Assembly: GCA_037442425.1 (NCBI GenBank)
Contig: JBBIQG010000004.1
Span: forward strand, 20,036 to 84,035
Direction: 5' to 3'
DNA length: 64,000 bases
Source: Acidobacteriota bacterium
GTDB taxonomy: Bacteria > Acidobacteriota > Terriglobia > Acidiferrales > UBA7541
Within the stretch, counting starts at the first letter, position 1, and every line of letters begins with the position of its first letter. A model generated the notes under the pieces. It had not been told where the DNA came from. It worked only from the letters and a program-made list of their open reading frames with translations, and did not search any database. Positions 13,140 through 64,000 of the stretch are shown piece after piece. Position numbers and translations under genes: made by a program.

Positions 13140-13160
13140 GTGGAAATTTATTTCCCTTTC
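13140..13160. promoter_or_regulatory. 21-nt motif GTGGAAATTTATTTCCCTTTC (contains the inverted repeat GGAAAT-TT-ATTTCC); a second copy is at 21168-21188
   Basis: 17 of 21 positions are identical to GTGGAAATTAGTTTCTCTTCC at 21168-21188. Both copies lie 70-105 bp upstream of a minus-strand sigma54-like element in the two AT-rich intergenic regions of the polysaccharide cluster. Confidence 0.3.
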
Positions 13161-13353
13161 GAAGAATCCAATTTCCACTCTGTAGGAGTGCTTTCGGAGC
13201 CGTGTAAAGCAGAGTTGAAGCAGAGCGAATGGGTATCGGCCAGAGAAAGCTGTCCAATACACTGCAAATAGGACACATACATTTACGGTTTTCGGCGAGA
13301 GAGGGGTCTTCTTTCATTTGAATTCCGAATTGGGGTGTAGGTCAAACTCCACT

Positions 13354-13369
13354 TGGCAAGTAAGTTGCA
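13354..13369 (+). promoter_or_regulatory. Candidate sigma54 (-24/-12) promoter for the GT2/FemAB/regulator operon
   Basis: TGGCAA-GTAAG-TTGCA with exact consensus spacing, 115 nt upstream of the ATG at 13484. Confidence 0.5.
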
Positions 13370-13483
13370 CTTTGCTGGGAGGACAGAGACCGTCACCCGT
13401 GTCTATTGTCTAGAAGTGCGGGCTGTTTTTGTGGATGAGCATAGGACATTTGGTTTTGCATTGAGCCTGCTTCAAGGAGAGCA

Positions 13484-14527: not shown

Positions 14528-14545
14528 CCGCCTTCTCCGATTTCT

Positions 14546-15622: not shown

Positions 15623-15745
15623 ACAAACTGATTGGGCTGGTCCATCGCAACCTGCTCCGTAGGTTTCCGGCGGCTAGCGCAGGGATGGCAACAAAATGTT
15701 CAGCAGGCTTGCTCGGCGGATGCGAATTCAGTATCTTGGCATGGG

Positions 15746-21188: not shown

Positions 21189-21321
21189 TTCTGTGCCTTT
21201 TATGTATGGATGCTTCCTAATTTATTGGAATTGTTGATGTTGTGTTTTCTTTAATTCGTTCAACGGCGCCTTTCATTTGGAGTGAGAGTTGCAGTCGATA
21301 CTGCGACAACCGGGTTCACAT

Positions 21322-25169: not shown

Positions 25170-26849
25170 ATGCATCCGGGCGCCGTAACCGCTCCCCACC
25201 GCCGTTTCTTCTCGTTTGCAGCGTGGTTCTGGCTACCGGCACTGGCCATTGCCTTCCGCCTGCTGCTGGTGGCCGTGCTGCCCCGCGTGCTTCATTCCGA
25301 CGAACCGATCTATCTGTTGTTGGGCGTCAACGTACTTTCGGGGCGCGGGTATACGACCTGGCTGACACCGGATCTTCATTTTCCTCCGCTCTTTCCGTTT
25401 GTGGCGGGTCTTTTCTATCGTGTGACCGACAACTTGGAGTGGGCCAGCAATTTCGCCTATGCGTTGTTCGGTGGACTGCTCGTCGTGCCCCTGTTCTTGC
25501 TGGCCCGACGAGTCTACGGCACCACAACGGCCTGGGTCACGGCAGTGTTCGTGATGCTGTTCCCGGCGTTGAACATCAGTGTCCTCTACTGGGGCAGCAT
25601 GACCGAACCGCTCTTCTTATTTTTGCTCTACGCTGCCGCAGGGGTACTTCTGGCCGGCTTGGAGGAGCATCGCGGCCGCTGGCTGGTTGTTGCCGGAGGC
25701 CTGCTCGGCCTGGCGTATCTGACGCGGCCGGAAGCTCTCGGTTATTTCGCGGTGGGCTGCCTGCTCGTGCTGTTCTGGCCGTCGGGGGGATGGGCGCTCG
25801 GCTTGCGCCTGCGCCGGTTGGTGGGTTTCGCTGTCATCTTTCTGCTTTTTGCGGCGCCCTATCTTTTCTACCTGAAAGGACAGACCGGGCAATGGATGTT
25901 CAGCGGGAAAGGGTCGCTTTCCTGGGAACTGGGCGGAGAACTTGGGCAAACCGGAAAAGGTTACGACTGGCTGATCGCTCGCCTGGATTCTTCGCAGCAG
26001 GAAATCTACTGGTTCTCGCCGGAGCGCTTTCAGCACCCCGTCGGGATGAAACAGGCACTGTGGAACGACCCGATGCAAGTTTTGAAACGGCTGATGCGCA
26101 ATGCCAGCGACCTGCCGTTCGTGCTGTTCGAATGGCATGTCTTCTGGTTCGGTCTGTTGCCGTTGGTCGGTCTGGGACTGTTCGGGGATGCGTGGGACCG
26201 CGCCCGGTTGTGGCGCGAGTGTTTCCTGTTTGCCTGGCTGCTCCCACTGGCCGGACTGCTGCTGTTTCGTCTGGTGCTGCGATTCTATGCTCCGGTGTTT
26301 CCTTTGCTGTTGCTCTGGACCGCTCATGGCGCGGTGGTGCTCGGAACCCGCTTGCAGCAGACCGCGGTCCTTTGCGGCGCGAACGCCGCTCGGCGAGCCT
26401 GGCCCGCCCATCTGCTGCGTTCAGTACCGGCAGCCTTTGTGGTTTTCTATTTTCTGATCATTTCGTTGAGCCTGGTTGCGAACCATCGCCATGAGCTTTT
26501 CCTGGGCTACAAAAAAGCGGCGGCGTGGCTGGAACAGCATTCGCTTCCTACCGCGCGCGTCATGACCCGCGAGACGGCGGTTGGCCTCTATGCGGCTCGC
26601 GTGCGAGTCCCTTTTCCCAATGCCCCGTGGGAGCAGGTGCGTGACTACGCGCGCCGACACCAGGCCGACTACTTGATCGCCACGGAATTCGAGCTCACCC
26701 AGCTGCGCCCCCAACTGCAACGGCTGGTGCATCGCGAAACCCTGCCGCCGGAACTCCAACTGCTCCACCAGATTCCAGAGCCCGGCGGGCAGGTCTTCAT
26801 CTTCCGCTTCGATTGGAGTCGGTCGGAGCCCGACTCACAGATTCGCTAA
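25170..26849 (+). CDS. GT-C fold glycosyltransferase (ArnT/PMT-like, GT39/GT83-type)
   Basis: About 12 TM helices. The first loop carries HSDEPIYLLLG (the DE motif of ArnT/PMT enzymes). There is a C-terminal soluble domain. Confidence 0.75.
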   Translation: MHPGAVTAPHRRFFSFAAWFWLPALAIAFRLLLVAVLPRVLHSDEPIYLLLGVNVLSGRGYTTWLTPDLHFPPLFPFVAGLFYRVTDNLEWASNFAYALFGGLLVVPLFLLARRVYGTTTAWVTAVFVMLFPALNISVLYWGSMTEPLFLFLLYAAAGVLLAGLEEHRGRWLVVAGGLLGLAYLTRPEALGYFAVGCLLVLFWPSGGWALGLRLRRLVGFAVIFLLFAAPYLFYLKGQTGQWMFSGKGSLSWELGGELGQTGKGYDWLIARLDSSQQEIYWFSPERFQHPVGMKQALWNDPMQVLKRLMRNASDLPFVLFEWHVFWFGLLPLVGLGLFGDAWDRARLWRECFLFAWLLPLAGLLLFRLVLRFYAPVFPLLLLWTAHGAVVLGTRLQQTAVLCGANAARRAWPAHLLRSVPAAFVVFYFLIISLSLVANHRHELFLGYKKAAAWLEQHSLPTARVMTRETAVGLYAARVRVPFPNAPWEQVRDYARRHQADYLIATEFELTQLRPQLQRLVHRETLPPELQLLHQIPEPGGQVFIFRFDWSRSEPDSQIR

Positions 26850-52061: not shown

Positions 52062-52856
52062 TCAGAAAAACCAGAACCGTTTGCGACGCCGACTCTGAGC
52101 TGCTCCGACCGCGCCTACGTGTGCTGGGTCGGGCGGCTCCGGGACCCAGGGCAGGGGACGGCCTTCGAGTGCCGCCAGCGGATTTTCTCGAAACAGGGCG
52201 TCGGCGACTGGTTCACCGTGCTGCTTGCGGACGGCAGCATAGGCCTCGCTGAGCTGAATCGGCCGACTGTGGAGATTGTGGGCATCGGAGGCCACAAAGT
52301 GCACCAGCCCCTCGGCCAGCCACTGCTCGGCGGCACGCTGGGCGGCAGGACCGAACCGACCGAGGAATGAGCCCGCGGTCACCTGTACATAGCAGCCCCG
52401 TTGTACCCAGTTGGCCAAACGCTGGGGCTGCCGGCAGATCAAACCGTTCCGCTCCGGGTGCGTGATTACGGGAACAATGCCGTGCAACTGCAACTGATGC
52501 AGCGCGTCATCTACGGAAGGCGGAATCGCAAAATCGGCAAATTCCACCAAAAGATAATTCTTCTGGTTCAGTGTGTACTTGGAGGGGTGTGCGCGCGCAT
52601 CGCGCACGTTTTCATAGGTCAGATGGAAATCACAGCCCGTGGCAAGAAACAATCGGTCGCCTACAACGCCAGCGATTTCATCTCGGCGCTGGCGCACCAA
52701 ATCGGGAAGGAAAGTGTAGCGGTCATTGGCGTGCGGCGTGGCGACCACGTGGGTGATGCCATCGGCGATGGCTGCTTCGGCCATCCGCAAGGACTCCTCC
52801 AGGGCATCGGGACCGTCGTCCAGTCCGGGCAGCAAATGACAGTGAATGTCGATCAT
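52062..52856 (-). CDS. PHP-domain (CpsB/YwqE-type) protein-tyrosine phosphatase
   Basis: MIDIHCHLLPGLDDGP...VVATPHAN...VITHPERN...FVASDAHN are the metal-binding motifs of CpsB/YwqE. The start is set at Met 52856 (alternative 52877); the track ORF over-extends to 53186. Confidence 0.8.
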   Translation of the reverse strand: MIDIHCHLLPGLDDGPDALEESLRMAEAAIADGITHVVATPHANDRYTFLPDLVRQRRDEIAGVVGDRLFLATGCDFHLTYENVRDARAHPSKYTLNQKNYLLVEFADFAIPPSVDDALHQLQLHGIVPVITHPERNGLICRQPQRLANWVQRGCYVQVTAGSFLGRFGPAAQRAAEQWLAEGLVHFVASDAHNLHSRPIQLSEAYAAVRKQHGEPVADALFRENPLAALEGRPLPWVPEPPDPAHVGAVGAAQSRRRKRFWFF

Positions 52857-52943
52857 CGGATGGGCAAGATAACGCATCTCGGTCAGGCAGGCAATTGGCG
52901 GACCATTCGCTGTGCGAAACGTTTGCAGGCAAGTGTGAGAGAT

Positions 52944-52959
52944 TGGCCAGCATCTTGCA
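52944..52959 (+). promoter_or_regulatory. Candidate sigma54 (-24/-12) promoter for the FecR-like/wza/wzc operon
   Basis: TGGCCA-GCATC-TTGCA with exact GG/GC spacing, in the 370-nt divergent intergenic region, 270 nt upstream of the ATG at 53228. Confidence 0.45.
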
Positions 52960-53227
52960 ATGTTCATCTCTCGATGGAGTACTTTGAGTTTCATTTCGGA
53001 AGTGAAAAGAAAATTGGTTGTCGAAACGGCGCGGCAGGGTTTCGAGCAACGGGGAGTGATTGTTTGGAAAATCCGCTTGACACTCAGCGGATCCCGCGGG
53101 GTACACTGCCGCCGTTCTGGGCCCGCCGTCTCTCCCTTCCCGCGGGTTCCCTGCATTCCACCCCTTCCATGGAGCAACCAGGACAAGCTTGTGGCGAAAG
53201 CAAATCTATTTTGTCAGGAGGGGTTCG

Positions 53228-53902
53228 ATGAGCAGGAAAAGCTTGCTGGCCGTGGTCGTGTCGCTGCTGCTGGTCTATGCGGGCGTGGCGCCGGCGTATC
53301 CCCCTGCAGCGGTGGGCACCATCCAGGCCAAGGGACGCGTGGAAGTCAACGGTGTGGTTCTGCCTTCTGAAGGAACTCTCTATGCCGAGGACCGCATCGT
53401 CATCGGAAAAGATGCAGCCGGGTCACTGATGCTGGCCGGGCGCGACCAGGTGTTTCTGCCTGAGTTGAGTGTTGCCGCAATCCGCCAGGCGGGTGAACGG
53501 TTGCGCGTGGTTCTCGAGCAGGGTTCGCTGGCCGTAGTCAGCCGTGCGGAACGGCCTCTGCAGGTGCAGGCGCTCGGAGCCCAGATCTCGGCCGCCGGTG
53601 GTGCAGCTATTTTCGAGGTGGCCGTGCGCGGCCGCGCGCTCGAGGTGCTTAGCCGGCATGGAACCGCGACGGTGGTAGCCGCAGATCGCACCATCGAGGT
53701 TCCCGCAGGAATGAAGCTGGAGGCTACGGTGGCTCCGGCGCCGGTGAACGGGCTGAGTGCGTTCGACAAATTTGTCTTGGTCACGGCCGTCGGCTTGGGC
53801 GTCGCTGGGTTTGCGGTAGCCCTGGCTGCCTTCTTGCGGGATGAACCGCAGGAGTGCCGAGTGGTCGGCTCGGCCACACCGTTCACGATTAGCTGTCCGT
53901 AG
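53228..53902 (+). CDS. FecR-domain-like secreted/membrane-anchored protein
   Basis: Signal peptide SLLAVVVSLLLVYAGVAPA. The beta-rich core follows the FecR pattern (GRVEVNG..LPSEGTLYAEDRIVIGKDAAGSLMLAG..VFLPELS...VVLEQGSLAV...). C-terminal TM helix FVLVTAVGLGVAGFAVALAAFL. GGAGG lies upstream of the ATG at 53228. Confidence 0.5.
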   Translation: MSRKSLLAVVVSLLLVYAGVAPAYPPAAVGTIQAKGRVEVNGVVLPSEGTLYAEDRIVIGKDAAGSLMLAGRDQVFLPELSVAAIRQAGERLRVVLEQGSLAVVSRAERPLQVQALGAQISAAGGAAIFEVAVRGRALEVLSRHGTATVVAADRTIEVPAGMKLEATVAPAPVNGLSAFDKFVLVTAVGLGVAGFAVALAAFLRDEPQECRVVGSATPFTISCP

Positions 53903-54065
53903 GCCGCGGCCAGCAGAGTCGTTCGGAAGCCTTCTCGAATGCGAGCCGTGCCCACAGGACGGCTCGCCCCCTTCCTTCGAGAGTCTTTCCTCTGTTCGTG
54001 CGTGCAGCCGGTGTGCGCCGTACGCAGCCGGCTCGCTAGCAGGCGACAAGAGGGGAGCATACCCA

Positions 54066-55106
54066 ATGAGGTACAACACAGGCTTTCTCCGCAGAGCGCC
54101 ACGAGTGGTCCTCGGGTGGCTACTGGGCACGGTCGGCGCGCTCAGTGCCCACCCGCCCCAGACCCAAGAGCCTACGAAGGAAGAGAAGCTGGTACTCGAG
54201 ACGACCCGAGATTACAACCAGCGGCTGGCGCAGCTCGAGCAGAGCCTTCGCGGCACCGCCGATGCTGGGGAGGGGCAGATCGGTCCGGAGGATCTGCTGG
54301 AGATCACGATCCTCGGTGCCGAGGAACTGAACCGTACCGTGCGCGTGAACAACGCCGGAGAGATTTCCCTGCCGCTGATCGGTCCGCTCGTCGCCGCCGG
54401 CCGAACGGCACGCGAGCTGGAGCAAGAGATTAGCCGGCGCCTGGCCGAGCGGTACATGCGCGACCCGCAGGTGAGTGTGTTTGTGAAGGAACTGAACAGC
54501 CGGGGAGTGGCGGTGTTCGGGGCCCTGGCCCGGCCGGGTGTCTATCAATTGCGCAGACGCAGCTCGGTGGTCGAGGTGCTGTCGCTGGCCGGTGGGTTGG
54601 CCGAGGACGCTGGTGACCGCGTGGTGATCACGCGCAGTCCGGAACGGGTCCTGGCCAGCGAGCTGGCGCCGGTAGCCGAAATCCAGCTGAAGGATCTGTT
54701 GCAGTCGGGCAGTCCAGAGCTGGATCTGCCAGTCTGGCCTGGCGACGTGGTGCGGGTGCCCCGCGCGGGCGTGGTCTATGTCGTGGGCGAGGTGCACAAG
54801 CCCGGGGGTTTTCTGCTGCGGAGCAACGAAAGCATCAGCGTGCTCCAGTCGCTGGCGCTGGCCGAGGGCCTGACCCGCACGGCGGCGCGCAGTCGCGCCC
54901 GGATCATTCGCACCGATGCCAGCACCGGTGCGCGGCAGGAGATTCCCATCGATCTGGGTCGCATCCTGGACGGCAAGGCTCCGGACCTGTTGCTGCAGTC
55001 CCGCGACATCGTCTTTGTGCCCAACTCGGCGGCGCGCGGGGCGTTCTATCGCAGTGCTGAAGCCGCCATCGGGATCGTCAGCGGGTTGATCGTGTTCCGG
55101 AGGTAG
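54066..55106 (+). CDS. wza: Outer-membrane polysaccharide export protein (Wza/EpsE-like: Poly_export plus SLBB domains)
   Basis: DLLEITILGAEELNRTVRVNNAGEISLPLIGPLVAAGRTARELEQEISRRLAERYMRDPQVSVFV; SLBB-like GVAVFGALARPGVYQL and VYVVGEVHKPGGFLL. The start is set at Met 54066 with a GGGGAG ribosome-binding site. Confidence 0.85.
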   Translation: MRYNTGFLRRAPRVVLGWLLGTVGALSAHPPQTQEPTKEEKLVLETTRDYNQRLAQLEQSLRGTADAGEGQIGPEDLLEITILGAEELNRTVRVNNAGEISLPLIGPLVAAGRTARELEQEISRRLAERYMRDPQVSVFVKELNSRGVAVFGALARPGVYQLRRRSSVVEVLSLAGGLAEDAGDRVVITRSPERVLASELAPVAEIQLKDLLQSGSPELDLPVWPGDVVRVPRAGVVYVVGEVHKPGGFLLRSNESISVLQSLALAEGLTRTAARSRARIIRTDASTGARQEIPIDLGRILDGKAPDLLLQSRDIVFVPNSAARGAFYRSAEAAIGIVSGLIVFRR

Positions 55107-55107: not shown

Positions 55108-57435
55108 ATGAGCGAAGCGCATCAGTTGGTTCCCCGCCGCCCGGCGGGTGCGGTCGTGCGCGGCCCGTTGCCAGCTCCACGAGCAACCGACAGCCAGCGC
55201 GAAACGCCGGTGGATCTGGTGGCCTACTGGCGGGTGCTGCGCAAGCGTCGCTGGACGGTGCTGACGCTGTTCTGCATCGTCTGGCTGCTGGTGCTGGTCG
55301 GTACGCTGAAGATGCGGCCGGTGTTCGAAGCCCGCGGCTTGATCGAAATCGAAAAAGAAAATCCGAATTTCCTGACGATGAAGGAACTGTTTGAGCTGGA
55401 AACGGTCTCGGATGCTTATCTGGAAACCCAGTACAAGGTGCTCCGCAGCGATGCCTTGGCGCGACGAGTGATCCAGCAGTTGCGCTTGGACCGCATCCCC
55501 GAGTTCAACCCGACCGCCTCCTCGGCCGGCACAGTGTCGGCGGCCAGCGTGCCGGATTCGGTGCCGGGGCCGGAAGCGCTGGAGGCCACGCTGGCCAGCT
55601 ATCACCGGCGGCTGACCATCGCTCCGGTCAAGCGTAGCCGACTCGTGGAAATCAGTTTTCAGTCGCACGATCCAGAACTGGCCGCTGCCGTGGTCAATGC
55701 GCTTGCCGACAACTACATCGACCAGAGTTTGGAGGTGCGCTGGCAAGCTACCCAGAAGGCCAGTGAATGGCTCGGTCAGCAGCTCGACGGGCTGAAAGTG
55801 AAACTGGAACGCTCCGAAGAAGAGCTGCACCGGTACGCCCAGGAAAACGGCCTGGTGTTTCTGGAAACCAGCGACGGGCAGCCCGAGCACATTCTGGATG
55901 AGCGGCTGCGGCAGTTGCAGGAGGAGCTGACGCGGGCGCAGGCCGAGCGGTTCGAGCGGGAATCTCGCTATCGGCTGGTCGAGGCTGGGCATTTTTCGGC
56001 ATTGCCCGGCGGCGAGAGTAAGGTCATCGAAGACCTGCTCGTGCGGCTGGCCGATCTGCGGCGCGAACGGGCGGAGCTGGCCACGTTGTTCACCGGGGAA
56101 TATCCCCGCGTGCGCCAGCTCGACAACCAGATCGGTGAGCTCGAACAGTTGCTGGCCGCCGAACGTGCGCGCATGGCCGAGCGCGTCGGCAATGAGTACC
56201 GCGCGGCACTGGCACGGGAGCAGATGCTGGTCCGCGCCTTTGCCGAACAGCAACGGCAGCGGAACCAGGTGGCTGAACGCTCGGTGCAGTACAACATCCT
56301 CAAGCGAGAAGTGGAAACCAACCGACAACTCTACGAAGCCCTGCTGCAGCGGTTGAAGGAAGTCGGCGTTTCTTCGGGCATCAAATCCTCCAACATTCGC
56401 GTGGTGGATCGTGCCACGCCGCCGCGACGTCCCGCAAAACCGAACCTGCTGCTGAATCTGATCTTGGGAACCCTCTTCGGGCTCGGATTGGGAATCGGGA
56501 CGGCACTGCTGGTCGAGCACGTCGACAGTTCGATCAAAAGCTCGGAGGAAATCGAACGCTATCTGCAGATTCCCACGCTGGCGTTCATCCCGGCAGCCGA
56601 TTCGCTCATCGGGCGGCGCGGTGCCGTCTACGGTCGGCGGCCACAGATTTCGGGCGGTGTCTTGGCCGGGCGTCGGACGCAGAAGCCCAACGGGAAGCCG
56701 GCACCGGGGCTGAACATCTGGATGCGCATTGACCGACTGGAAAAAGAGCGTTCGGCGCTGGTGGAGGCCTTCGCCAGTCTGCGCACCTCGGTCCTGCTTT
56801 CTGCGGCCGACCGTCCCCCGCGGACTCTGTTGGTGACCAGTGCGCAGCCGGGCGAGGGGAAATCGACCATCTCCACCAACCTGGCGATTTCGTTGGCCCA
56901 GCTCGGTCAGCGTGTGCTGCTGATCGACGGAGACATGCGTCGGCCTTCGGTCCATCTGGTCTTCGGACTCGGACGGCAGCAGGGGTTGTCTGGCTATCTG
57001 TCCGGGCGGGTCGAGTGGAGGGAAGTGGTGCAGCCGACCGGCGTGCTGGGTCTGGATGCGCTGGTCTGCGGGCCGATTCCGCCGAACCCGGCGGAGTTGC
57101 TGAGCGGCGAGCGCATGTCCGCGCTGCTGCAGGAAGCTGCGCGCCACTATCACGTCGTGATTGTGGATTCGCCGCCCGTGCTGCATGTTTCCGACAGCCG
57201 CGTGCTGGCCACGCAAGTCGAAGGCGTCGTGCTGGTCGTCCAAGCAGGAACCACGCCGCGCGAGCTGGCGCAGCGGGCTCTTGCTGGAATCGAAAGTGTG
57301 GGCGGGCATGTGCTCGGCGTAGTGCTGAATCAGCTCGATGCTCGTTCTGCCGACGCGTATGCCTATTCCTACTATCACTACTACGAGCGGCGCGAGGTCG
57401 AGACGGCGGAAAGCGCCGCCAGCCCGGACCGTTGA
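55108..57435 (+). CDS. wzc: Polysaccharide co-polymerase / BY-kinase tyrosine autokinase (Wzc/GumC-like)
   Basis: N-terminal Wzz-type domain with TM helix, then a long coiled coil. Walker A SAQPGEGKSTIS, A' LLIDGDMRRP, B VVIVDSPP. C-terminal Tyr cluster DAYAYSYYHYYE. Confidence 0.9.
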   Translation: MSEAHQLVPRRPAGAVVRGPLPAPRATDSQRETPVDLVAYWRVLRKRRWTVLTLFCIVWLLVLVGTLKMRPVFEARGLIEIEKENPNFLTMKELFELETVSDAYLETQYKVLRSDALARRVIQQLRLDRIPEFNPTASSAGTVSAASVPDSVPGPEALEATLASYHRRLTIAPVKRSRLVEISFQSHDPELAAAVVNALADNYIDQSLEVRWQATQKASEWLGQQLDGLKVKLERSEEELHRYAQENGLVFLETSDGQPEHILDERLRQLQEELTRAQAERFERESRYRLVEAGHFSALPGGESKVIEDLLVRLADLRRERAELATLFTGEYPRVRQLDNQIGELEQLLAAERARMAERVGNEYRAALAREQMLVRAFAEQQRQRNQVAERSVQYNILKREVETNRQLYEALLQRLKEVGVSSGIKSSNIRVVDRATPPRRPAKPNLLLNLILGTLFGLGLGIGTALLVEHVDSSIKSSEEIERYLQIPTLAFIPAADSLIGRRGAVYGRRPQISGGVLAGRRTQKPNGKPAPGLNIWMRIDRLEKERSALVEAFASLRTSVLLSAADRPPRTLLVTSAQPGEGKSTISTNLAISLAQLGQRVLLIDGDMRRPSVHLVFGLGRQQGLSGYLSGRVEWREVVQPTGVLGLDALVCGPIPPNPAELLSGERMSALLQEAARHYHVVIVDSPPVLHVSDSRVLATQVEGVVLVVQAGTTPRELAQRALAGIESVGGHVLGVVLNQLDARSADAYAYSYYHYYERREVETAESAASPDR

Positions 57436-57483: not shown

Positions 57484-58176
57484 ATGCAAATCTTTCTCGA
57501 TAGCGCCAATCGCCAGGAAATCGCGCGATGGCTTGCGCATGGCTTGGTAGACGGAGTCACCACGAATCCGTCGATTTGTTTGCGAGACGGTGTCTATGAC
57601 CTGGAAGAGGGCACGCGAGCGCTATGCCGATTGCTCGACCCGCGCCCGGTTTCGGTCGAAGTGACCAGCAATGATCCCGAGCAGATGCTGCGCCAGGGAC
57701 GCGCCATGGCCCGCTGGGCGCCGAACGTGGTGGTCAAGATTCCCGTGATCAACCAGGACGGCCTTTCCTGCCTCGATGTCGTGCACCGGTTGGCTCAGGA
57801 AGGCATTGCGGTCAACTGCACTGCGATCCTTTCCTTCAATCAGGCTCTGCTGGCCGCGAAGGCGGGCGCGAGCTACGTCAGTCTGTTCGCTGGCAGGATT
57901 GCGGACGAAGGTGGCAATCCGTCCGAGGTCATCGGCCATGTGCGCGGCTGGCTGGATCGCTGGGCCCATCCGGCGCGAATCATCGTCGGCAGTATTCGCA
58001 CCGTGCTGGACGTGCAGTGGGCAGCAATGGCGGGAGCCCACATCATCACCATTCCGCCGCCGTTTCTGCCGCGCATGGTGGATCACAAGTACAGCCGGGA
58101 GACCGTGCGCGGCTTCAACGCCGATGCGGAACGGGCGCTGGCAGAACTCGCTGCGCGCACCGCCGACCGCGGTTAG
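57484..58176 (+). CDS. Short-form transaldolase / fructose-6-phosphate aldolase family protein (TalC/FSA class)
   Basis: MQIFLDSAN...DGVTTNPS...VVVKIPV (Schiff-base Lys)...GIAVNCTAILSFNQALLAAKAGASYVSLFAGRI. About 230 aa. Confidence 0.85.
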   Translation: MQIFLDSANRQEIARWLAHGLVDGVTTNPSICLRDGVYDLEEGTRALCRLLDPRPVSVEVTSNDPEQMLRQGRAMARWAPNVVVKIPVINQDGLSCLDVVHRLAQEGIAVNCTAILSFNQALLAAKAGASYVSLFAGRIADEGGNPSEVIGHVRGWLDRWAHPARIIVGSIRTVLDVQWAAMAGAHIITIPPPFLPRMVDHKYSRETVRGFNADAERALAELAARTADRG

Positions 58177-58197
58177 GCAATCCGGCAGGGGAACGCG

Positions 58198-59658
58198 ATG
58201 CGACAGTCCTATGCTTTCACCGGTGGATGGACCACCCGGCATCTGCTGCTGGGAGCCGATCTGCTCTGGGTGACGGCCAGCTTCTATCTCTCCTACCGCC
58301 TGCTCCCGGTCTACCGCCCGTGGCTGCGTGCCGGGACTGCGGACCCGGGCCATTTCTCCGCGCACGCCTGGCTGCTGCTGTTGATTCTGCCGCTCTGGAT
58401 TGGTCTGGCCGCGCAGGCCGGGTTGTACGCGCGCACGCGACTGGCCTGGCGGCTGGTGCTGCAGCGGACGTTGCGCACGTCAGCGTTCGGACTGGCCGGT
58501 TTGGCCGTGGTGATCTTTGCCGCCAAGCTGGTCGAAGTGAGTCGGCTGATCCTGTTCGGTTTCTGTCTGCTCTACATTCCGGTTTCGCTCGCCGGTCGCT
58601 GGCTGGTGCTGGGACTGCTCGCGCTGCGCCGCACACACATCTACAACGTGCCGCGAGTTTTGGTGGTGGGTACGCGGGAACGGGCGCGCGAATTCATCCG
58701 CCGCGCACGGCACGCCGACGAAGCCGACTACTGCGTGGTCGGTTGTCTCGACCCGGAACCGCTGCCGGCCCGCGCTACGGTCGAAGGCGTTCCGGTGCTG
58801 GGCGGCACCGATGCGCTGGCTTCGATCCTGACCCGCGAGGCGGTGGATTGGGTGGTGTTCGCCATGCCGCTGACTCTGGTGCCGGACGCCAACCAGCAGA
58901 TTGCTGCCGCGGTCGAGCTCGGACTGCGGGTGGTGGTGCTGCCGGATTTCCAGTTGCACCGGGCGGGTTACTCGATGGCCGATCCGCAGGTTTCGCTGGA
59001 ATTTTTCCTCGGCCTGCCCGTGGCCGTGATTTCCAACGTCCGCTGGAGCGGTGGCTATCGATTGGTCAAACGGGCCATGGACTTGGTCGGAGCCGCGGTG
59101 CTGCTGGTGCTGTTGTCGCCGTTGCTGGCGGCCATTGCGGTGGCGATCAAGCTGAGCGATCCGCGCGCACCGGTCCTCTACCGCTGGCGGGTGCTCGGGC
59201 GCAATCACCGACCGATCACGAGCTGGAAATTCCGCACCATGGTGACCGATGCCGACCGCCGCAAGGCCGAGCTGGCGGCGGCCAACGAGATGAACGGGCC
59301 GGTCTTCAAGATGCGCAACGACCCACGGGTGACGCGGCTGGGCCGCTGGCTGCGCAAGTACAGTCTGGATGAGCTGCCGCAACTGGTCAGCGTGCTGCGC
59401 GGCGACCTGAGCCTGGTCGGGCCGCGTCCACCGTTTGCCGAAGAAGCGGAGCGGTTCGCATTCTGGCAGCGGCGGAAGCTTTCGGTCAAGCCGGGCTTGA
59501 CCTGCTTGTGGCAGGTGAACGGTCGCAACGAAATCCGCGACTTCGACCACTGGGTGCAACTGGACCTGGAATACATCCGCCGGGCCTCGCTGGGCTTGGA
59601 CTGCTGGATTTTGTTGAAGACGATCCCTGCGGTGCTGCGCGGGCGCGGGGCCTACTAG
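58198..59658 (+). CDS. Polyprenyl-phosphate hexose-1-phosphate transferase (WbaP/EpsB-type priming phosphoglycosyl transferase)
   Basis: Four or five N-terminal TM helices, a central linker domain, then the C-terminal catalytic domain KRAMDLVGAAVLLVLLSPLL...WKFRTM...GPVFKMRNDPRVTRLGRWLRKYSLDELPQL...LSLVGPRP. Confidence 0.9.
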   Translation: MRQSYAFTGGWTTRHLLLGADLLWVTASFYLSYRLLPVYRPWLRAGTADPGHFSAHAWLLLLILPLWIGLAAQAGLYARTRLAWRLVLQRTLRTSAFGLAGLAVVIFAAKLVEVSRLILFGFCLLYIPVSLAGRWLVLGLLALRRTHIYNVPRVLVVGTRERAREFIRRARHADEADYCVVGCLDPEPLPARATVEGVPVLGGTDALASILTREAVDWVVFAMPLTLVPDANQQIAAAVELGLRVVVLPDFQLHRAGYSMADPQVSLEFFLGLPVAVISNVRWSGGYRLVKRAMDLVGAAVLLVLLSPLLAAIAVAIKLSDPRAPVLYRWRVLGRNHRPITSWKFRTMVTDADRRKAELAAANEMNGPVFKMRNDPRVTRLGRWLRKYSLDELPQLVSVLRGDLSLVGPRPPFAEEAERFAFWQRRKLSVKPGLTCLWQVNGRNEIRDFDHWVQLDLEYIRRASLGLDCWILLKTIPAVLRGRGAY

Positions 59659-59691
59659 TTCGCGTGCAGGCACACCGCACGCAGAGGGAGG

Positions 59692-60843
59692 ATGGAGTTG
59701 GCGGAAACGATTTTAGTGACGGGTGGTGCTGGGTTTATCGGCTCGCACACGGTGGATCTGCTGCTTGCCCGTGGTTACCGCGTGCGCGTGCTCGACAATC
59801 TCCAGCCGCGGGTGCATCCGCACGGCTGGCCTGCTTGGCTGCCGGCCGAGGTGGAACGGATGGCGGGCGATGTGCGCGATGCGACAACCTGGGAGCGAGC
59901 TCTGGACGGGGTGCGTGGCGTATTTCACCTGGCGGCTTACCAGGACTACCAGCCCGATTTCTCCACTTTCGTGCAGGTCAATGCGGTTTCGACCGCGTTG
60001 CTGTTCGAAGTGATCGCAGCCCGGCGGCTGCCGGTCGAAAAGGTGGTGCTGGCATCTTCACAGGCCGTCTATGGAGAGGGCAAATACCGCTGCGCCGAGC
60101 ACGGCGTGTTCTATCCGGCCGCGCGTTCGCTGGCGCGGCTGCGGGCCGGCCAGTGGGAACATCCCTGTCCACAATGCAGGGCCGATCTGGAGCCGGTTCC
60201 GTTGGAGGAATCGGTTGTCCACCCGCACACCGCCTACGGCATCTCGAAGTACGCCGCCGAACTGCTCGGCTTTCAGCTCGGCCGACGGCTGGGCATCCCC
60301 GTCGTGGCCATGCGGTATTCGATTGTGCAGGGACCGCGGAACTCGCTCTGGAACGCGTATTCGGGCATCTGCCGGATCTTCGTCAAACGGCTACTGCGCG
60401 GCCAGCCCCCCGTGGTGTTCGAAGACGGTCGCCAGTTGCGCGACTACGTGCACGTGGCCGACGTGGCCCGTGCCAATCTTTTGGTTTGGGAGCGTCGAGA
60501 GGCGGAGTTTCAGGCCTACAACGTGGGCGGTCAGCAGGCAACCAGCGTGCTCGAGTTCGCCACCCTAGCGGCACGGGCCTGTGATGCGGCGATTGCTCCG
60601 ATCGTGCGCGGCGAGTTTCGCCTGGGCGATGCTCGTCACACGATCTCCGATTCGGCAAAGCTGCGCGCACTCGGCTGGGCGCCGAAGCACGGTGTCGAGC
60701 AAATCCTCCGCGATTATGTGGCCTGGGTGCGCGAGCAGGGCGAGCCGCCCGACAACGCTGAGCAAGCCGCCGAGGAAATGAGGCGCGCTGGTGTGCTGGT
60801 GACTGCCACACCATCGGCACAGGAGGTGCGGGCCGGATCATGA
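59692..60843 (+). CDS. Extended SDR NAD-dependent sugar epimerase/dehydratase with a Cys/His-containing insertion
   Basis: ILVTGGAGFIGSH; SSQAVYGEG; YGISKYAAE (YxxxK). A roughly 40-aa insert KYRCAEHG...HPCPQC lies between them. Confidence 0.8.
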   Translation: MELAETILVTGGAGFIGSHTVDLLLARGYRVRVLDNLQPRVHPHGWPAWLPAEVERMAGDVRDATTWERALDGVRGVFHLAAYQDYQPDFSTFVQVNAVSTALLFEVIAARRLPVEKVVLASSQAVYGEGKYRCAEHGVFYPAARSLARLRAGQWEHPCPQCRADLEPVPLEESVVHPHTAYGISKYAAELLGFQLGRRLGIPVVAMRYSIVQGPRNSLWNAYSGICRIFVKRLLRGQPPVVFEDGRQLRDYVHVADVARANLLVWERREAEFQAYNVGGQQATSVLEFATLAARACDAAIAPIVRGEFRLGDARHTISDSAKLRALGWAPKHGVEQILRDYVAWVREQGEPPDNAEQAAEEMRRAGVLVTATPSAQEVRAGS

Positions 60844-61916
60844 TCGTCACACGCACACCGTTTCGCATCACGCTCGGAGGCGGCGGCACCGATCTGCCTG
60901 CGTACTACCGCCAGCGGGGCGGGTTTGTTTTCGCCGCCGCGATCAACAAATACATGGTGATCAACCTGAACCGGCCGGTCGTCGACGATCTGGTGCGGGT
61001 CAAATACACGCGCACGGAGATCGTTCCACACCGGGACCAGCTCGAGCACGATATCGCGCGCGAAGCCCTGCGGCTGGTCGGGATCGAACGCGGCGTGGAG
61101 ATTGTCTCCATGGCCGATGTGCCGGCCGGAACCGGACTCGGCAGCTCGAGCTGCTACGCGGTGGGGCTGCTGAACGCTCTGCACACGCTGCAGCGCCGTC
61201 CGCTGGGCCCGGCCGATCTGGCCGAGGAAGCCTGCCATCTGGAGATCGAAATTCTGGGCAAGCCCATCGGCAAGCAGGATCAGTACTTGGCGGCCTTCGG
61301 CGGGTTGACCGTACTGGAGATTGCCCCGGATGGTTGCGTCGCTGTGCGCCCGGCACGGGTTTCCGAGGAAACCCTCGAGGAGCTGCGGCGCAATATGCTG
61401 CTGTTTTACACCGGCACCGAACGCAACGCACTGGACATTCTGGCTGAACAGAGTCGCGCGGCGGCCGCGGCCAGCGACGGCGTGCTCAGCAGCTTGGACC
61501 GCATCAAGGAGATGGGCTGGCAGATTCTGGAATGGATCGAGGCGGGCGACCTGACCAGCTTCGGGTTGGCGCTCGACCGGCACTGGCAGTTGAAGAAGCG
61601 GCTCTCGACCAAGGTGACCAACCCGCGCTTCGATGCCCTCTACGAACTGGCCCGTGCCCACGGCGCGCTGGGCGGCAAGCTGTCCGGTGCTGGCGGCGGC
61701 GGTTTCTTTCTGTTCTACACCGAACGGCGACACCAGCAACTGCGCGAAGCGATGCGCGCTGCCGGGCTGCGCGAAATGCGATACGGCTTCGACTTCGAAG
61801 GTTCGAAGGTGCTGGTGAACTTCCTCGATGGGGGCTTCTCGGCTGCGGTGCAGGCGCTGTCGGCTGTGCCCACCGGTGTGGAGACATCCGCACGGAGCGA
61901 ATCATGGCCCGCATAG
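60840..61916 (+). CDS. GHMP-family sugar kinase of the D-glycero-D-manno-heptose-7-phosphate kinase (HddA)-like group
   Basis: TRTPFRITLGGGGTDLPAYY, VPAGTGLGSSSCYAVG, GKQDQYLAAFGG, LFYTGTER, GGKLSGAGGGGFFLFY. The ATGA overlaps the upstream SDR stop. Confidence 0.8.
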   Translation: MIVTRTPFRITLGGGGTDLPAYYRQRGGFVFAAAINKYMVINLNRPVVDDLVRVKYTRTEIVPHRDQLEHDIAREALRLVGIERGVEIVSMADVPAGTGLGSSSCYAVGLLNALHTLQRRPLGPADLAEEACHLEIEILGKPIGKQDQYLAAFGGLTVLEIAPDGCVAVRPARVSEETLEELRRNMLLFYTGTERNALDILAEQSRAAAAASDGVLSSLDRIKEMGWQILEWIEAGDLTSFGLALDRHWQLKKRLSTKVTNPRFDALYELARAHGALGGKLSGAGGGGFFLFYTERRHQQLREAMRAAGLREMRYGFDFEGSKVLVNFLDGGFSAAVQALSAVPTGVETSARSESWPA

Positions 61917-63259
61917 CCGTTTTCGGTCTGTGGCATCTCGGCTGCGTCGTGGCTGGTTCTCTGGCCCGACTCGGGCACCAGGTCTGCGGCACCGATTTGG
62001 ATAGCGCGGTGGTCGCTCGGCTGGCGGCCGGCGAGCCGCCGCTGTTCGAGCCAGGGTTGCAGGAGCTGCTGACCGGCGAGCTCAGCACCGGTCGGCTAGC
62101 GTTTACTGCCGACGCGGCTCGTGCCCTTGCCGGCGCGGATGCAGCCTTCATCACGTTCGACACGCCGGTCGACGCCGCCGATGGCAGCGACCTTCGTCCC
62201 ATCGAACGTGCAGCACTGGCTATTGCTGCGCATGCGCGCACGCCCCTGACGGTAGTGCTGATGAGTCAGGTGCCGGTCGGCACCACGCGCCGGCTGGCGG
62301 CCGAGATGGCTGCACGTGCCCCGGAGTTGCAGTTCACCCTGCTCTGCCAGCCGGAAAACCTGCGGCTCGGACAAGCGCTGGAAACGTTCATCCGGCCCGA
62401 CCGCATCGTGGTGGGCGCAGAAAACCGCGCAGCGGCCGAGAAATTGGAGCCGCTCTATCGCGGGGTTCCGGGCCCGCGGTTGATCATGAGCTGGGAGAGT
62501 GCTGAGTTGGCCAAACACGCCACCAACGCCTTTCTGGCCACCTCGGTCAGCTTCGCCAACGAGCTGGCTGCGCTGGCTGAAGTTGTCGGAGCCGATATCC
62601 GCGACGTCGTCGGTGTCCTGCGGGCCGATCGGCGGATCGGTCCACAGGCCTTTCTCAGCCCCGGGCCCGGTTTCGCCGGCGGTACGCTGGGTCGCGATGT
62701 CCAGACGCTCCGACAGCTCGGTGCGCGCAGTGGCCAGCCAACCTGTCTGCTCGATGCGGTACTCGCCGTCAATCAGGCACGATTGCCCATGTTGGTGGAG
62801 AAGCTGCGGCGATTGCTCGGCGGGGAACTGGCGGGACGACGGATCACTCTGCTCGGCTTGGTCTACAAACCCGGCACGAGCACCTTGCGTCGTTCGCACG
62901 CCTTGGAGCTGGCTCGGCGACTGGCCGATGCCGGCGCGATGCTGCAGGCCTACGATCCCCGGGTGACGGGTTCTGCCGGTACTGAACTGGATGGCAGCGG
63001 AATCGTGCTCGGTGCGGACCCTTACCAAGCGGCCGCCGGTGCTGATGCCGTTTTGCTGGCTACGCCTTGGCCTGAGTTTCGCACCCTCGACTGGGTACAG
63101 ATGCGCCGGGTGATGCGCGGCGCGGTCGTTTTGGATGCGCACAATCTGCTCGACCCAGTGGAACTGGCTCGTGCGGGATTGGTCTGGGCCGGAGTCGGAG
63201 TTCCGCAGCCCGGCTCGACCCAGTCGAAAGCAGGTTCGATGGCAGGAGTGGGACGATGA
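61904..63259 (+). CDS. UDP-glucose/GDP-mannose dehydrogenase family protein lacking the catalytic cysteine
   Basis: MARIAVFGLWHLGCVVAGSLA (Rossmann), ELAKHATNAFLATSVSFANE, LGLVYKPGTSTLRRS. The active-site motif reads PGPGFAGGTLGRD where family members have GFGGSC(F/L)PKD. It overlaps the GHMP kinase by 13 nt. The track ORF start 61532 is an over-extension. Confidence 0.8.
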   Translation: MARIAVFGLWHLGCVVAGSLARLGHQVCGTDLDSAVVARLAAGEPPLFEPGLQELLTGELSTGRLAFTADAARALAGADAAFITFDTPVDAADGSDLRPIERAALAIAAHARTPLTVVLMSQVPVGTTRRLAAEMAARAPELQFTLLCQPENLRLGQALETFIRPDRIVVGAENRAAAEKLEPLYRGVPGPRLIMSWESAELAKHATNAFLATSVSFANELAALAEVVGADIRDVVGVLRADRRIGPQAFLSPGPGFAGGTLGRDVQTLRQLGARSGQPTCLLDAVLAVNQARLPMLVEKLRRLLGGELAGRRITLLGLVYKPGTSTLRRSHALELARRLADAGAMLQAYDPRVTGSAGTELDGSGIVLGADPYQAAAGADAVLLATPWPEFRTLDWVQMRRVMRGAVVLDAHNLLDPVELARAGLVWAGVGVPQPGSTQSKAGSMAGVGR

Positions 63260-64000
63260 GCCGACCACTGCGCGGAGAAGCGGTACTGATCACCGGAGCC
63301 GGCCAAGGCATCGGTGCGGCGACGGCGCTGGCCTTTGCCCGCGCCGGTGCCCATCTGACGTTGGTGGCGCGCACGATGGCTGATCTGGAACGGGTTGCGC
63401 GACAAGCAACCGAAGCTGGGGTGGAGGCCGTGCCGGTGGCCGGAGACGTCTCGGACGCGCGCGATGTGGACCGGTTTGTCCGCATCGCGCTGCAGCGCTA
63501 TGGACAGATGGACGTGGTGGTGAACTGCGCCGGGATCTACGGGCCGATCGGCCCGCTGGTCGAAAATGACATGGAGCAGTGGGCCCAAGCCGTAGCCGTC
63601 AATCTGGTGGGCACGGCGCGCGTGCTCCATCGTACCCTGCCCGTCATGATCGCTCGGCGCAAAGGCGTGGTGGTGAATTTTTCCGGTGGCGGCGCAGTGG
63701 CACCGTTCCCCAGGTTTTCGGCCTACAGCGCGAGCAAAGCGGCGGTGGTGCGCCTGACGGAGACCCTGGCCGAAGAGGTGCGCGAGTACGGCATCCGGAT
63801 CAACGCCATTGCCCCCGGAGCCGTGAACACCCGGCTGCTCGATCAGGTGCTGGCGGCCGGAGAGCGGGCCGGGGCGGCGTTCTATGCCAAGGCACTCGAG
63901 CAGAAACGAACGGGAGGCACGCCCGCTGAATGTGCCGCCGAGCTGGCCGTGTTTCTGGCGACGCCGGCGGCTGCCGGAATTACCGGCCGGCTGATCAGCG
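63256..64000 (+). CDS. Classical SDR oxidoreductase (FabG-like), 3'-truncated by the window edge
   Basis: AVLITGAGQGIGAATA (TGxxxGxG), NCAG, YSASKAAVVRLTE (YxxxK), INAIAPGAV. The ATGA overlaps the upstream stop. It is absent from the ORF track because there is no stop in the window. Confidence 0.8.
   Translation, partial: MSRPLRGEAVLITGAGQGIGAATALAFARAGAHLTLVARTMADLERVARQATEAGVEAVPVAGDVSDARDVDRFVRIALQRYGQMDVVVNCAGIYGPIGPLVENDMEQWAQAVAVNLVGTARVLHRTLPVMIARRKGVVVNFSGGGAVAPFPRFSAYSASKAAVVRLTETLAEEVREYGIRINAIAPGAVNTRLLDQVLAAGERAGAAFYAKALEQKRTGGTPAECAAELAVFLATPAAAGITGRLIS

Follow-up and report, generated by a model that had tools for sequence, protein, structure and literature searches.

In Streptomyces lincolnensis, LmbR, LmbN, LmbP, LmbK and LmbO make GDP-octose, which LmbM, LmbL, CcbZ and CcbS then convert to GDP-lincosamide (PMC12945683, PMC4351081). 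The documented reaction of LmbL and CcbZ is a 6,8-dehydration. Among our loci, L175 is the genuine lincomycin cluster, encoding the exact 'LmbL [Streptomyces lincolnensis]' sequence, with the gene order TAL-DegT-NTase-GHMP-GFO-SIS-extSDR-UGDH-HAD. A related route, the GDP-D-glycero-alpha-D-manno-heptose pathway of capsules and S-layer glycans (GmhA, HddA, GmhB and HddC; for example Burkholderia WcbL, Campylobacter, Aneurinibacillus), in its canonical version contains no transaldolase and no LmbL-type or LmbZ-type gene.

We analyzed a 64,000-nucleotide stretch of DNA (the window) from an Acidobacteriota (Terriglobia-like) genome, in which the region considered here covers the 5' portion of a Wzx/Wzy-type exopolysaccharide (EPS) locus. 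We propose, with a probability of about 0.5, that this locus contains a dedicated Lmb-like NDP-higher-sugar branch, probably for an octose, drawn from the same enzyme families and subfamilies as the lincomycin GDP-octose route. Gene content, synteny, sequence relationships and active-site substitutions are established below, while the enzymatic steps are inferred by homology. Because an EPS cluster here carries relatives of the lincomycin octose enzymes, an unusual C7 or C8 sugar probably enters the polysaccharide.

Every gene that the initial annotation had named is present where it was placed and on the + strand, and the gene content, order and three overlaps it listed all held (Table 1). 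The extended SDR, kinase, UGDH-family and classical SDR genes are translationally coupled: ATGA overlaps at 60840 and 63256 join the first and the last pair, and the middle pair shares 13 nt at 61904. As the remaining intergenic gaps are 21-48 nt, the whole run looks like a single transcription unit. The syntenic counterparts of the tyrosine phosphatase gene in L001, L004, L008 and L009 carry the PF19567 CpsB_CapC domain. The conserved protein encoded before wza has no Pfam or NCBIfam match, and a gene of 224-225 aa occupies the same position in L001, L004, L007, L008 and L009. The true start of Wza is probably internal, later than 53841, because its orthologues are ~340-346 aa long. Both Wzc (TIGR01007, 185 bits versus a cut-off of 108) and the priming transferase (TIGR03025, 369 bits versus 296) score above threshold. 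The transaldolase starts with MQIFLDSAN at the ATG at 57484, with a GTG at 57481 listed by the ORF tool as an alternative.

Table 1. Features of the EPS locus, in window coordinates
Feature	Coordinates	Strand	Remarks
CpsB/CapC-type (PHP) tyrosine phosphatase	52062..53186	-	Marks upstream edge of EPS locus
Conserved protein, ~225 aa, unknown function	53189..53902	+	Before wza
Wza-type outer-membrane polysaccharide export protein	53841..55106	+	Pfam Poly_export, SLBB, SLBB_2
Wzc-type polysaccharide co-polymerase / tyrosine autokinase	55108..57435	+	Pfam Wzz, GNVR and P-loop
Transaldolase, TAL_FSA, 230 aa	57484..58176	+	Pfam PF00923, E = 5e-43
Priming polyprenyl-phosphate glycosyl-1-phosphate transferase (WbaP/WcaJ class)	58198..59658	+	Pfam Bac_transf and CoA_binding_3
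Extended SDR, GalE-like epimerase	59692..60843	+	Pfam Epimerase
GHMP sugar-phosphate 1-kinase, HddA/LmbP type	60840..61916	+	Pfam GHMP_kinases_N, GHMP_kinases_C
LmbL-type NDP-sugar dehydrogenase, UGDH fold	61904..63259	+	All three UGDH Pfam domains
Classical SDR, cut by window end	63256..64000	+	Pfam adh_short, E = 2e-53

Past the window end, syntenic contigs run on into genes for a Gfo/Idh/MocA oxidoreductase (GFO), a SIS isomerase and a HAD phosphatase. Ten contigs (L001, L004, L007, L009/L010, L091, L092, L094, L099 and L105) share the order Tal-PGT-extSDR-GHMP-UGDHlike-SDR-GFO-SIS-HAD, which L002, L008 and the window show in truncated form, and the contigs that continue through SDR-GFO-SIS-HAD encode proteins 70-96% identical to those of the window. 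In loci centered on the SIS gene, the transaldolase is found in all five that have enough upstream sequence, and the UGDH-like, SDR and GFO genes occur together in six of six. The initial annotation had noted that the window lacks the SIS isomerase and HAD phosphatase and had held that their absence downstream would refute the proposed branch; both lie directly downstream in the syntenic contigs, and the proposal survives on this point. The nucleotidyltransferase that it also sought downstream did not appear, as none lies within ~10 kb of any acidobacterial copy of the module. A nucleotidyltransferase HMM found nothing in 14 related loci, though it readily picked up RfbF (window 9876-10649). 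The module contains no aminotransferase.

The transaldolase (Tal) resembles the short TalC/MipB-type transaldolases and fructose-6-phosphate aldolases (FSA; Thermotoga maritima 1vpx, Thermoplasma acidophilum 3s0c) in its ~220-230-aa length and TIM-barrel fold. The catalytic Asp, Glu and Phe and the Schiff-base Lys are all retained, marking it as Tal-type and not FSA-type, as are the canonical phosphate-binding residues. It differs from the short types in that it is only 37% identical to T. maritima Tal (140 bits), scores 164 bits against TIGR00875, below the NCBIfam equivalog cut-off of 246, has a loop of 12 residues in place of 8 after the Schiff-base Lys, carries S[LIV]F for SPF, and has its gene within sugar-nucleotide or EPS operons. 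Genuine LmbR is closer (45% identity, 174 bits) and shares the 4-residue loop insertion as well as the motifs S[LI][FL] (replacing SPF), DEGG, PP and DHxY. The long loop is present in the nearest ~70 representatives (1.84 billion library), and LmbR and the module transaldolases are monophyletic in 100 of 100 bootstraps, in a tree whose outgroup comprised only two canonical sequences. Close homologues are named only 'transaldolase family protein' in their sources. We infer that the enzyme is a long-loop LmbR-type transaldolase that would make octulose-8-P from ribose-5-P, or sedoheptulose-7-P. Because it keeps the canonical Glu and Phe at positions where LmbR has Gln and Leu, however, it could be an ordinary transaldolase in activity.

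Related transaldolases are linked to similar genes elsewhere. In a second clade, a Tal 58-64% identical to ours belongs to a compact NTase-GHMP-SIS-HAD-Tal operon, its gene overlapping the HAD gene. Among NT-type loci, Tal is present in 10 of 18 with enough downstream sequence, the other 8 having no adjacent copy, and the nucleotidyltransferase in 12 of 16 with enough upstream sequence; NT-type relatives also have LmbO-like (30%) and LmbM-like (43%) genes. L164 and L165 display a third order, Tal-SIS-GHMP.

An alternative view is that Tal is the organism's ordinary pentose-phosphate enzyme, whose gene merely keeps a fixed place behind the export genes, much as gnd adjoins O-antigen and capsule loci in Enterobacteriaceae; it would have no role in the sugar branch, and the rest would be a heptose-type pathway. 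Consistent with this view, acidobacterial members of this Tal lineage (68-72% identity) come after Wzz or Wzc in EPS loci L005/L006, L171, L172 and L173, where kinase, SIS, HAD and LmbL-type genes are all absent within 10 kb, and these copies are interspersed with module-linked ones in the tree; the retained catalytic and phosphate-binding residues, and the lack of any second transaldolase in the 64-kb window, also fit. Against it stand the sub-threshold equivalog score and membership in the long-loop LmbR subfamily. Moreover, outside Acidobacteriota members of the subfamily are translationally coupled with HAD in operons of the order NTase-kinase-SIS-HAD-Tal and also occur as Tal-SIS-kinase, which passive synteny does not account for. 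We therefore regard a housekeeping role as unlikely. The earlier suggestion of a dedicated transaldolase is favored by its subfamily, TIGR00875 score and operon linkage, although a genome-wide count of transaldolases is lacking.

The kinase, isomerase and phosphatase relate to both Lmb and heptose enzymes. The kinase matches LmbP (35.5%, 144 bits) about as it does its best PDB matches, the heptose kinases 3k85 (30%, 140 bits), WcbL (33%, 134 bits) and 4n3o. Its E values of 1e-41 to 1e-44 for heptose kinases and LmbP compare with 1e-10 for galactokinase, those for the PDB heptose kinases alone (7e-42 to 2e-38) compare with 3e-10, and clustering with hexose-1-kinases, which would have counted against the initial annotation, is not observed. 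The SIS protein is closer to LmbN (47%, 162 bits) than to E. coli GmhA (32%, 80 bits), and its phosphate loop reads SVHGG plus an insertion, as in LmbN (9 residues in the module protein), where GmhA has STSGN. Likewise, the HAD protein is closer to LmbK (50%, 136 bits) than to E. coli GmhB (33%, 82 bits).

These data bear on the strongest rival, a divergent NDP-heptose pathway in which the three enzymes would act on sedoheptulose-7-P as GmhA, HddA and GmhB do. Tal would merely boost that pool during heavy EPS synthesis (F6P + E4P to S7P + GAP), and the LmbL/LmbZ-type enzymes and SDR would modify heptose C6/C7, for example by way of a 6-keto intermediate or by 6-epimerization. In support, the best NCBIfam names for the SIS, kinase and HAD proteins are gmhA, HddA (NF049969, 160 bits) and GmhB, heptose enzymes are the closest proteins of known structure, and Tal keeps the Glu and Phe altered in LmbR. 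Not every NT-type operon has a Tal beside it, so the core four enzymes evidently can use a precursor made elsewhere. In addition, a Gmd (GDP-mannose 4,6-dehydratase) gene after HAD in L007, L098, L099 and L105 suits the GDP-sugar chemistry typical of heptose loci. Conversely, scores fall short of the GmhA, HddA (cut-off 600), GmhB and HddC equivalog cut-offs by a factor of about two or more in every case, and the SIS, HAD and Tal proteins share insertions with, and lie nearer to, their Lmb counterparts. To our knowledge, no transaldolase has been described as part of a heptose cluster, S7P being already provided by transketolase, and the LmbL/CcbZ 6,8-dehydration requires a C8 chain. On balance the evidence leans slightly away from this rival, but no sequence feature separates a C7 from a C8 substrate, and the choice is not settled in silico.

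The UGDH-family assignment held, but with a change at the active site. The catalytic Cys is replaced by Thr (GGTLGRD, compared with GGSCFPKD in 4a7p and GATLRRD in genuine LmbL), and this Thr is found in the window protein and eight aligned relatives (six module-type orthologues, an LmbL-like protein from L014 and genuine LmbL). Without that Cys, the standard mechanism cannot yield a uronic acid. Because the substitution is common to both proteins, the case for an LmbL analogy goes beyond what the initial annotation knew. A normal UDP-glucose 6-dehydrogenase, supplying UDP-glucuronate for acidic EPS apart from the kinase branch, would fit the passed TIGR03026 threshold (325 bits versus 190), the nearest solved structure, Sphingomonas UGDH 4a7p (37%, 280 bits by blastp and 285 by phmmer, versus 40% and 197 bits for LmbL), and the presence of glucuronic acid in acidobacterial EPS (PMC5259719). 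We consider this very unlikely, given that the missing Cys is needed for the second oxidation and that the gene's ends overlap those of the kinase and SDR genes, with the SDR and an LmbZ-type GFO invariably alongside. The window's other UGDH-family gene (23681-25051) retains the Cys.

The GFO protein is 42.5% identical to LmbZ (211 bits), compared with 103 bits for its best PDB entry. L011 and L087 each carry the UGDH-like, SDR and GFO genes as a set, and L012 and L013 have the SDR-GFO pair; because L087 carries LmbM/L/Z-like genes without precursor genes, the tailoring enzymes are not limited to this precursor route. The classical SDR (286 aa in orthologues; full length at L001 15778-16638) is inferred to be a ketoreductase in place of the lmb aminotransferase LmbS. 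The proposed LmbM analogy for the extended SDR failed, with only 26% identity. This protein has a Cys/His-rich insertion of ~35 aa, its nearest PDB entries are the UDP-hexose 4-epimerases 4zrm, 6wjb and MoeE5, and a 57% orthologue adjoins the priming transferase in EPS loci without the kinase module; it is likely tied to the priming sugar.

In our preferred reading, the LmbR-type transaldolase would use fructose-6-P or sedoheptulose-7-P as donor of a dihydroxyacetone unit and ribose-5-P as acceptor, giving octulose-8-P, which the LmbN-type SIS isomerase would convert to the aldose. The GHMP kinase would phosphorylate C1, the LmbK-type HAD phosphatase would remove the terminal phosphate, and a nucleotidyltransferase encoded elsewhere would form the NDP-sugar. 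The Cys-less LmbL-type dehydrogenase and LmbZ-type GFO may then remodel the exocyclic chain, by analogy with the lincomycin 6,8-dehydration, and the classical SDR would reduce the remaining keto group. The predicted product, an 8-deoxy-octose-type sugar, would be used by the locus glycosyltransferases, MurJ-like flippase, Wzy, Wzc and Wza. The higher-carbon nucleotide-sugar branch first suggested on the HddA/Lmb model is thus supported.

With the GDP-heptose pathway, the module shares three folds (isomerase, then C1 kinase, then terminal phosphatase) and a setting in surface-polysaccharide loci. Unlike the lincosamide pathway, it lies in a Wza/Wzc/Wzy locus of a Gram-negative soil bacterium and not in an antibiotic cluster, follows another gene order, has a SIS protein without the carrier-protein domain, and has no local nucleotidyltransferase. 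Nevertheless, it shares seven of nine enzyme families with that pathway (Tal, SIS, GHMP, HAD, UGDH-like, Gfo/Idh/MocA and extended SDR). Six module proteins have an Lmb protein as best or co-best characterized relative (35-50% identity), and three subfamily signatures are common to both systems: the Cys-less LmbL, the LmbN SVHGG loop and the long-loop Tal.

Upstream of the PHP tyrosine phosphatase gene that bounds the EPS locus lie housekeeping genes, namely a PALP+CBS enzyme and an S-methyltransferase/MTHFR fusion. Within the EPS stretch, neighboring genes that do not overlap are separated by 21–48 nt, and the gene overlaps proposed in the initial annotation (ATGA at 60840, 13 nt at 61904, and ATGA at 63256) held. 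A scan of 52–64 kb for consensus promoters and terminators gave no signal above chance. Just before wza, positions 53189–53902 encode a ≈225-aa protein that is conserved in every syntenic contig and has no Pfam or NCBIfam match.

Coordinates, strand, and predicted products of the two glycan loci in the window
Feature	Position	Strand	Remark
DRL_cat+SAF oxidoreductase	5727-7226	-	
GT2	7094-7966	-	
Extended SDR	8743-9849	-	
RfbF glucose-1-P cytidylyltransferase	9876-10649	-	TIGR02623, 463 bits
ABC ATPase	10705-12042	-	
ABC-2 permease	12050-12973	-	
GT2	13484-14527	+	
FemAB/GNAT-like protein	14546-15622	+	
LuxR regulator	15632-16414	+	
PHP tyrosine phosphatase	52062-53186	-	Upstream boundary of EPS locus
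Wza	53841-55106	+	
Wzc	55108-57435	+	
TAL_FSA protein	57484-58176	+	230 aa
Priming transferase	58198-59658	+	WbaP/WcaJ class
Extended SDR	59692-60843	+	
GHMP kinase	60840-61916	+	
UGDH-family protein	61904-63259	+	
Classical SDR	from 63256	+	Truncated at window end

Looking up homologues by exact protein sequence gave a set of syntenic contigs (L001, L002, L004, L007, L008, and L009/L010, and later L091, L092, L094, L099, and L105) whose proteins are 70–96% identical to those of the window; the exact sequence of the window's kinase itself returned no entry on record. By the names that their sources give them, the homologues assign the lineage to the Acidobacteriota, class Terriglobia (Candidatus Acidiferrales, Terriglobales). 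Past the classical SDR, these contigs encode a Gfo/Idh/MocA oxidoreductase (GFO, ≈355 aa), a SIS_2 isomerase (210 aa), and a HAD-IIIA phosphatase (≈212 aa). In two of them, L091 and L092, the HAD gene is followed by a MurJ-like flippase, a double GT4, a Wzy-like protein, another GT4, a methyltransferase, and a further SDR, and in L007, L098, L099, and L105 by a bona fide Gmd (TIGR01472 passed). With Wza, Wzc, and the priming transferase in the window and the flippase and Wzy-like protein downstream, the components of a Wzx/Wzy-dependent EPS locus are present. The isomerase, phosphatase, and nucleotidyltransferase required for a higher-carbon sugar branch had been reported as absent from the window; the first two are thus accounted for by the syntenic contigs, and the nucleotidyltransferase was not found.

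Scanning GTDB with the GFO alignment brought up a Streptomyces contig (L014) carrying nine families in the order TAL-DegT-NTase-GHMP-GFO-SIS-extSDR-UGDH-HAD. When its UGDH-like protein served as the query, a homology search retrieved "LmbL [Streptomyces lincolnensis]," and the contig encoding exactly that protein (L175) is the genuine lincomycin (lmb) cluster, with the order LmbR-S-O-P-Z-N-M-L, LmbK on the opposite strand, and gene functions that agree with the tables in PMC4351081 and PMC12945683. We dropped L014 as a stand-in for lmb, given only ≈41% identity to genuine LmbL and an apparently frameshifted LmbR-like ORF, and used L175 instead. As a separate observation, L014 (Streptomyces cyaneofuscatus NZ_JBHXOX010000056.1, 1139–9203) carries a sub-cluster of nine sugar genes that keep the exact lmbR-S-O-P-Z-N-M-L-K order; because its LmbL homologue is so distant, this sub-cluster may direct synthesis of an undescribed amino-octose natural product. 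Its LmbR-like frame decays after ≈145 aa and continues into the DegT gene, so that a frameshift or an assembly error is suspected.

By pairwise BLASTP, the module SIS is 47% identical to LmbN (162 bits) versus 32% to Escherichia coli GmhA (80 bits), and the module HAD is 50% identical to LmbK (136 bits) versus 33% to E. coli GmhB (82 bits). The module GFO is 42.5% identical to LmbZ (211 bits), as against 103 bits for its best PDB entry. LmbN-, LmbK-, and LmbZ-type enzymes are therefore represented by orthologues outside the window, the LmbN-type gene lying directly downstream in the syntenic contigs. The kinase, at 35.5% identity to LmbP (144 bits) and 30 to 33% to the heptose kinases 3k85 and WcbL (134–140 bits), appears about equidistant from the two. 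Two Lmb functions are not matched: the extended SDR of the window is only 26% identical to LmbM and is not LmbM-type, and a DegT-family gene that could encode an LmbS-type aminotransferase occurs in no module locus, the corresponding slot being taken by the classical SDR.

Signature residues were also compared. The SIS phosphate loop reads STSGN-S in canonical GmhA, SVHGGxGRDxAGxWS in the module SIS, and SVHGGSRGGEVS in LmbN; the SVHGG loop with its insertion is a derived character common to the last two. The UGDH-like protein is 40% identical to LmbL (197 bits) and 37% identical to the UGDH 4a7p (280 bits), but the nucleophilic Cys of the latter (GGSCFPKD) is replaced by Thr in the window protein (GGTLGRD), in genuine LmbL (GATLRRD), and in all module-type orthologues. 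Because the catalytic Cys for the aldehyde-to-acid step is absent, the protein does not qualify as a UDP-glucose 6-dehydrogenase and is not a uronic-acid synthase; such a Cys-to-Thr substitution in a UGDH-family protein instead marks an LmbL-type side-chain dehydrogenase, which corrects the annotation. A second UGDH-family gene of the window (23681–25051), unlike this Cys-less paralogue, keeps the catalytic Cys (GGHCIPVD); it lies between GlmS (21289–23175) and a PMT_2/ArnT-like membrane glycosyltransferase (25170–26849).

The transaldolase (Tal) of the module is 45% identical to genuine LmbR (174 bits) and 37% identical to Thermotoga maritima Tal (140 bits) by pairwise BLASTP. LmbR and the module Tals share a loop of 12 rather than 8 residues after the strand bearing the Schiff-base Lys, an S[LI][FL] sequence in place of SPF, and DEGG, PP, and DHxYxRxTV motifs, and they are monophyletic in 100 of 100 NJ bootstraps, albeit against two canonical short transaldolases only. 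Nearly all of the ≈70 nearest clusters among 1.84 billion representatives have the long loop, and the long-loop Tals split into a Glu+Phe flavor, to which the window protein belongs, and a Gln+Leu flavor typified by LmbR. The window Tal thus differs from LmbR in keeping the canonical Glu and Phe at two catalytic-site positions. Its residues align with D6, E60, K86, and F132 of the Thermoplasma acidophilum enzyme, so that, from sequence alone, it is predicted to be a transaldolase (class I aldolase, EC 2.2.1.2), with the Schiff-base Lys, Asp, Glu, and a Phe at the position where FSA has Tyr. With this caveat about Glu and Phe, the module contains the LmbR-type transaldolase expected of a lincosamide-type NDP-octose pathway.

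To survey linkage, we scanned metagenomes with the SIS alignment, which gave two groups comprising 16 acidobacterial-type and 59 second-clade loci. Where enough sequence was available, the acidobacterial-type loci contain Tal upstream (5 of 5) and the UGDH-like, SDR, and GFO genes (6 of 6). The second clade (SIS 47–59% identical, GC ≈50%, sediment and subsurface samples) carries a compact NTase-GHMP-SIS-HAD-Tal operon (NT-type) within glycan loci, often with an LmbM-like SDR (43%) just upstream. Its Tal, 58 to 64% identical to that of the window and overlapping the HAD gene, was found in 10 of the 18 loci with enough downstream sequence. A third gene order, Tal-SIS-GHMP, occurs in two further loci, L164 and L165. 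In two unrelated contigs, a B12-binding radical-SAM gene adjoins the NTase-kinase-SIS(-HAD-Tal) module (L013, 13717–15171, minus strand; L114, 11873–13285, plus strand), a neighbor that hints at a radical modification of the same sugar, such as C-methylation.

An LmbO-type nucleotidyltransferase (30% to LmbO) is present in 12 of 16 NT-type loci with enough upstream sequence. A nucleotidyltransferase HMM derived from related operons had no hit in 14 related loci or around any acidobacterial module when ±10 kb was covered, although it readily detected the window's only nucleotidyltransferase, 47 kb off. We rejected the latter as the missing partner since it is the RfbF equivalog of a separate glycan locus. 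We conclude that the nucleotidyltransferase for the acidobacterial branch must be encoded elsewhere. A remote enzyme would not be unusual here, because the loci with gmd likewise have no detectable nucleotidyltransferase such as ManC. The separate locus (5727–16414) is of the ABC-transporter type, and its content probably indicates a CDP-hexose-derived sugar.

Some evidence cuts the other way. Tal-centered look-ups revealed a second acidobacterial context (L005/L006, L171, L172, and L173; Tal at 10001 in each) with the order LuxR, NusG paralogue, ≈1200-aa Poly_export protein, PAP2/Wzi fusion, kinase-less Wzz, and Tal, then a variable set of GT, methyltransferase, and Wzy genes, and finally the extended SDR and priming transferase. 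No kinase, SIS, HAD, or LmbL-type gene lies within 10 kb of these Tals, which are scattered among the module-linked Tals in the tree. Tal therefore behaves as a constant component of EPS loci in Acidobacteriota, and passive synteny, like that of gnd beside enterobacterial O-antigen loci, remains possible for this phylum. We found no explanation for the retention of Tal in loci without the kinase module. The occurrence of the linkage in three distinct gene orders speaks for a common function. A merely hitch-hiking housekeeping Tal seems unlikely and ranks behind the heptose rival discussed below.

The extended SDR (383 aa) comes after the priming transferase in both Tal contexts, and a 57% orthologue lies beside the priming transferase in L005, L171, and L172, which lack the kinase module; it thus probably serves the priming sugar rather than the higher-sugar branch. 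Residues ≈132–165 of this SDR form a Cys/His-rich insertion (YRCAEHG...HPCPQC), conceivably a metal-binding ribbon, that splits the match to solved GalE-like epimerases into two stretches. A glycan locus of a Dehalococcoidia MAG (L087, CAYGYF010000003.1, 9151–16384) encodes an SDR, a GFO, an LmbM-like protein (50% to the L014 copy), a Cys-less LmbL-like protein, an LmbZ-like protein (44%), and a Gmd-like protein with no transaldolase, kinase, SIS, or HAD gene within 10 kb, so a tailoring set can exist apart from the precursor set.

Together, these comparisons make it very likely that the EPS locus has a dedicated branch for an NDP-higher-carbon sugar, formed by the kinase, LmbL-type, SDR, LmbZ-type, SIS, and HAD genes. 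There is good support, too, for subfamily-level homology of this branch to the lincosamide sugar pathway, as opposed to the canonical GDP-D-glycero-D-manno-heptose pathway, whose curated equivalog cut-offs the module proteins do not reach (gmhA, 105 bits versus 209; HddA, 160 versus 600; GmhB, 121 versus 178); no HddC-type protein occurs in the module, and its NT-type relatives score 100 bits against a cut-off of 300.

The sequences contain no feature that discriminates a C7 from a C8 substrate, and a modified heptose, with Tal supplying S7P, is the main rival and remains possible. We favor an octose, at a probability of roughly 0.5, because the precursor-forming Tal belongs to the LmbR subfamily; because the LmbN-, LmbK-, LmbZ-, and LmbL-type enzymes have octose-pathway enzymes as nearest relatives or show the substitutions typical of them; and because the 6,8-dehydration reported for LmbL/CcbZ (2020 PNAS abstract) requires a C8 chain. 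GDP-octose is converted to GDP-lincosamide by LmbM, LmbL, CcbZ, and CcbS (PMC12945683), although the 6,8-dehydration itself was not confirmed there. With an SDR where the aminotransferase would be, the logical octose product would be an 8-deoxy-octose. A bolder reading, to which as a whole we give slightly less than even odds, is that abundant soil Acidobacteriota and sediment NT-type bacteria form an NDP-aldo-octose along a route that starts with a transaldolase and incorporate it into a cell-surface polysaccharide, the acidobacterial sugar being an 8-deoxy-octose, the hydroxy analogue of lincosamine.

In the literature searched, we found no polysaccharide locus with a heptose or octose pathway that includes a transaldolase and no GDP-octose outside the lincosamides, and the repeated coupling of a special Tal subfamily to sugar-nucleotide operons, of value even if the product is a heptose, was likewise not described. 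The only acidobacterial EPS composition study we found used just seven standards, all of them hexoses, pentoses, or uronic acids (PMC5259719), and would have missed an octose. The new LmbR, LmbL, and LmbZ homologues are also available for glyco-engineering. To our knowledge, aldo-octoses are not known in polysaccharides and occur only in a few antibiotics (lincosamides, apramycin, and octosyl nucleosides); if one is made here, it would be a new monosaccharide class for bacterial glycans, from a phylum that ranks among the most abundant in soil. We see the pathway as an Lmb-like route recruited to, or originating in, surface-glycan synthesis; it would be a plausible evolutionary source of the lincomycin sugar enzymes. 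Were the bolder reading true, the lincomycin sugar pathway would have branched off, by recruitment, from a widespread glycan pathway that has gone unrecognized so far.
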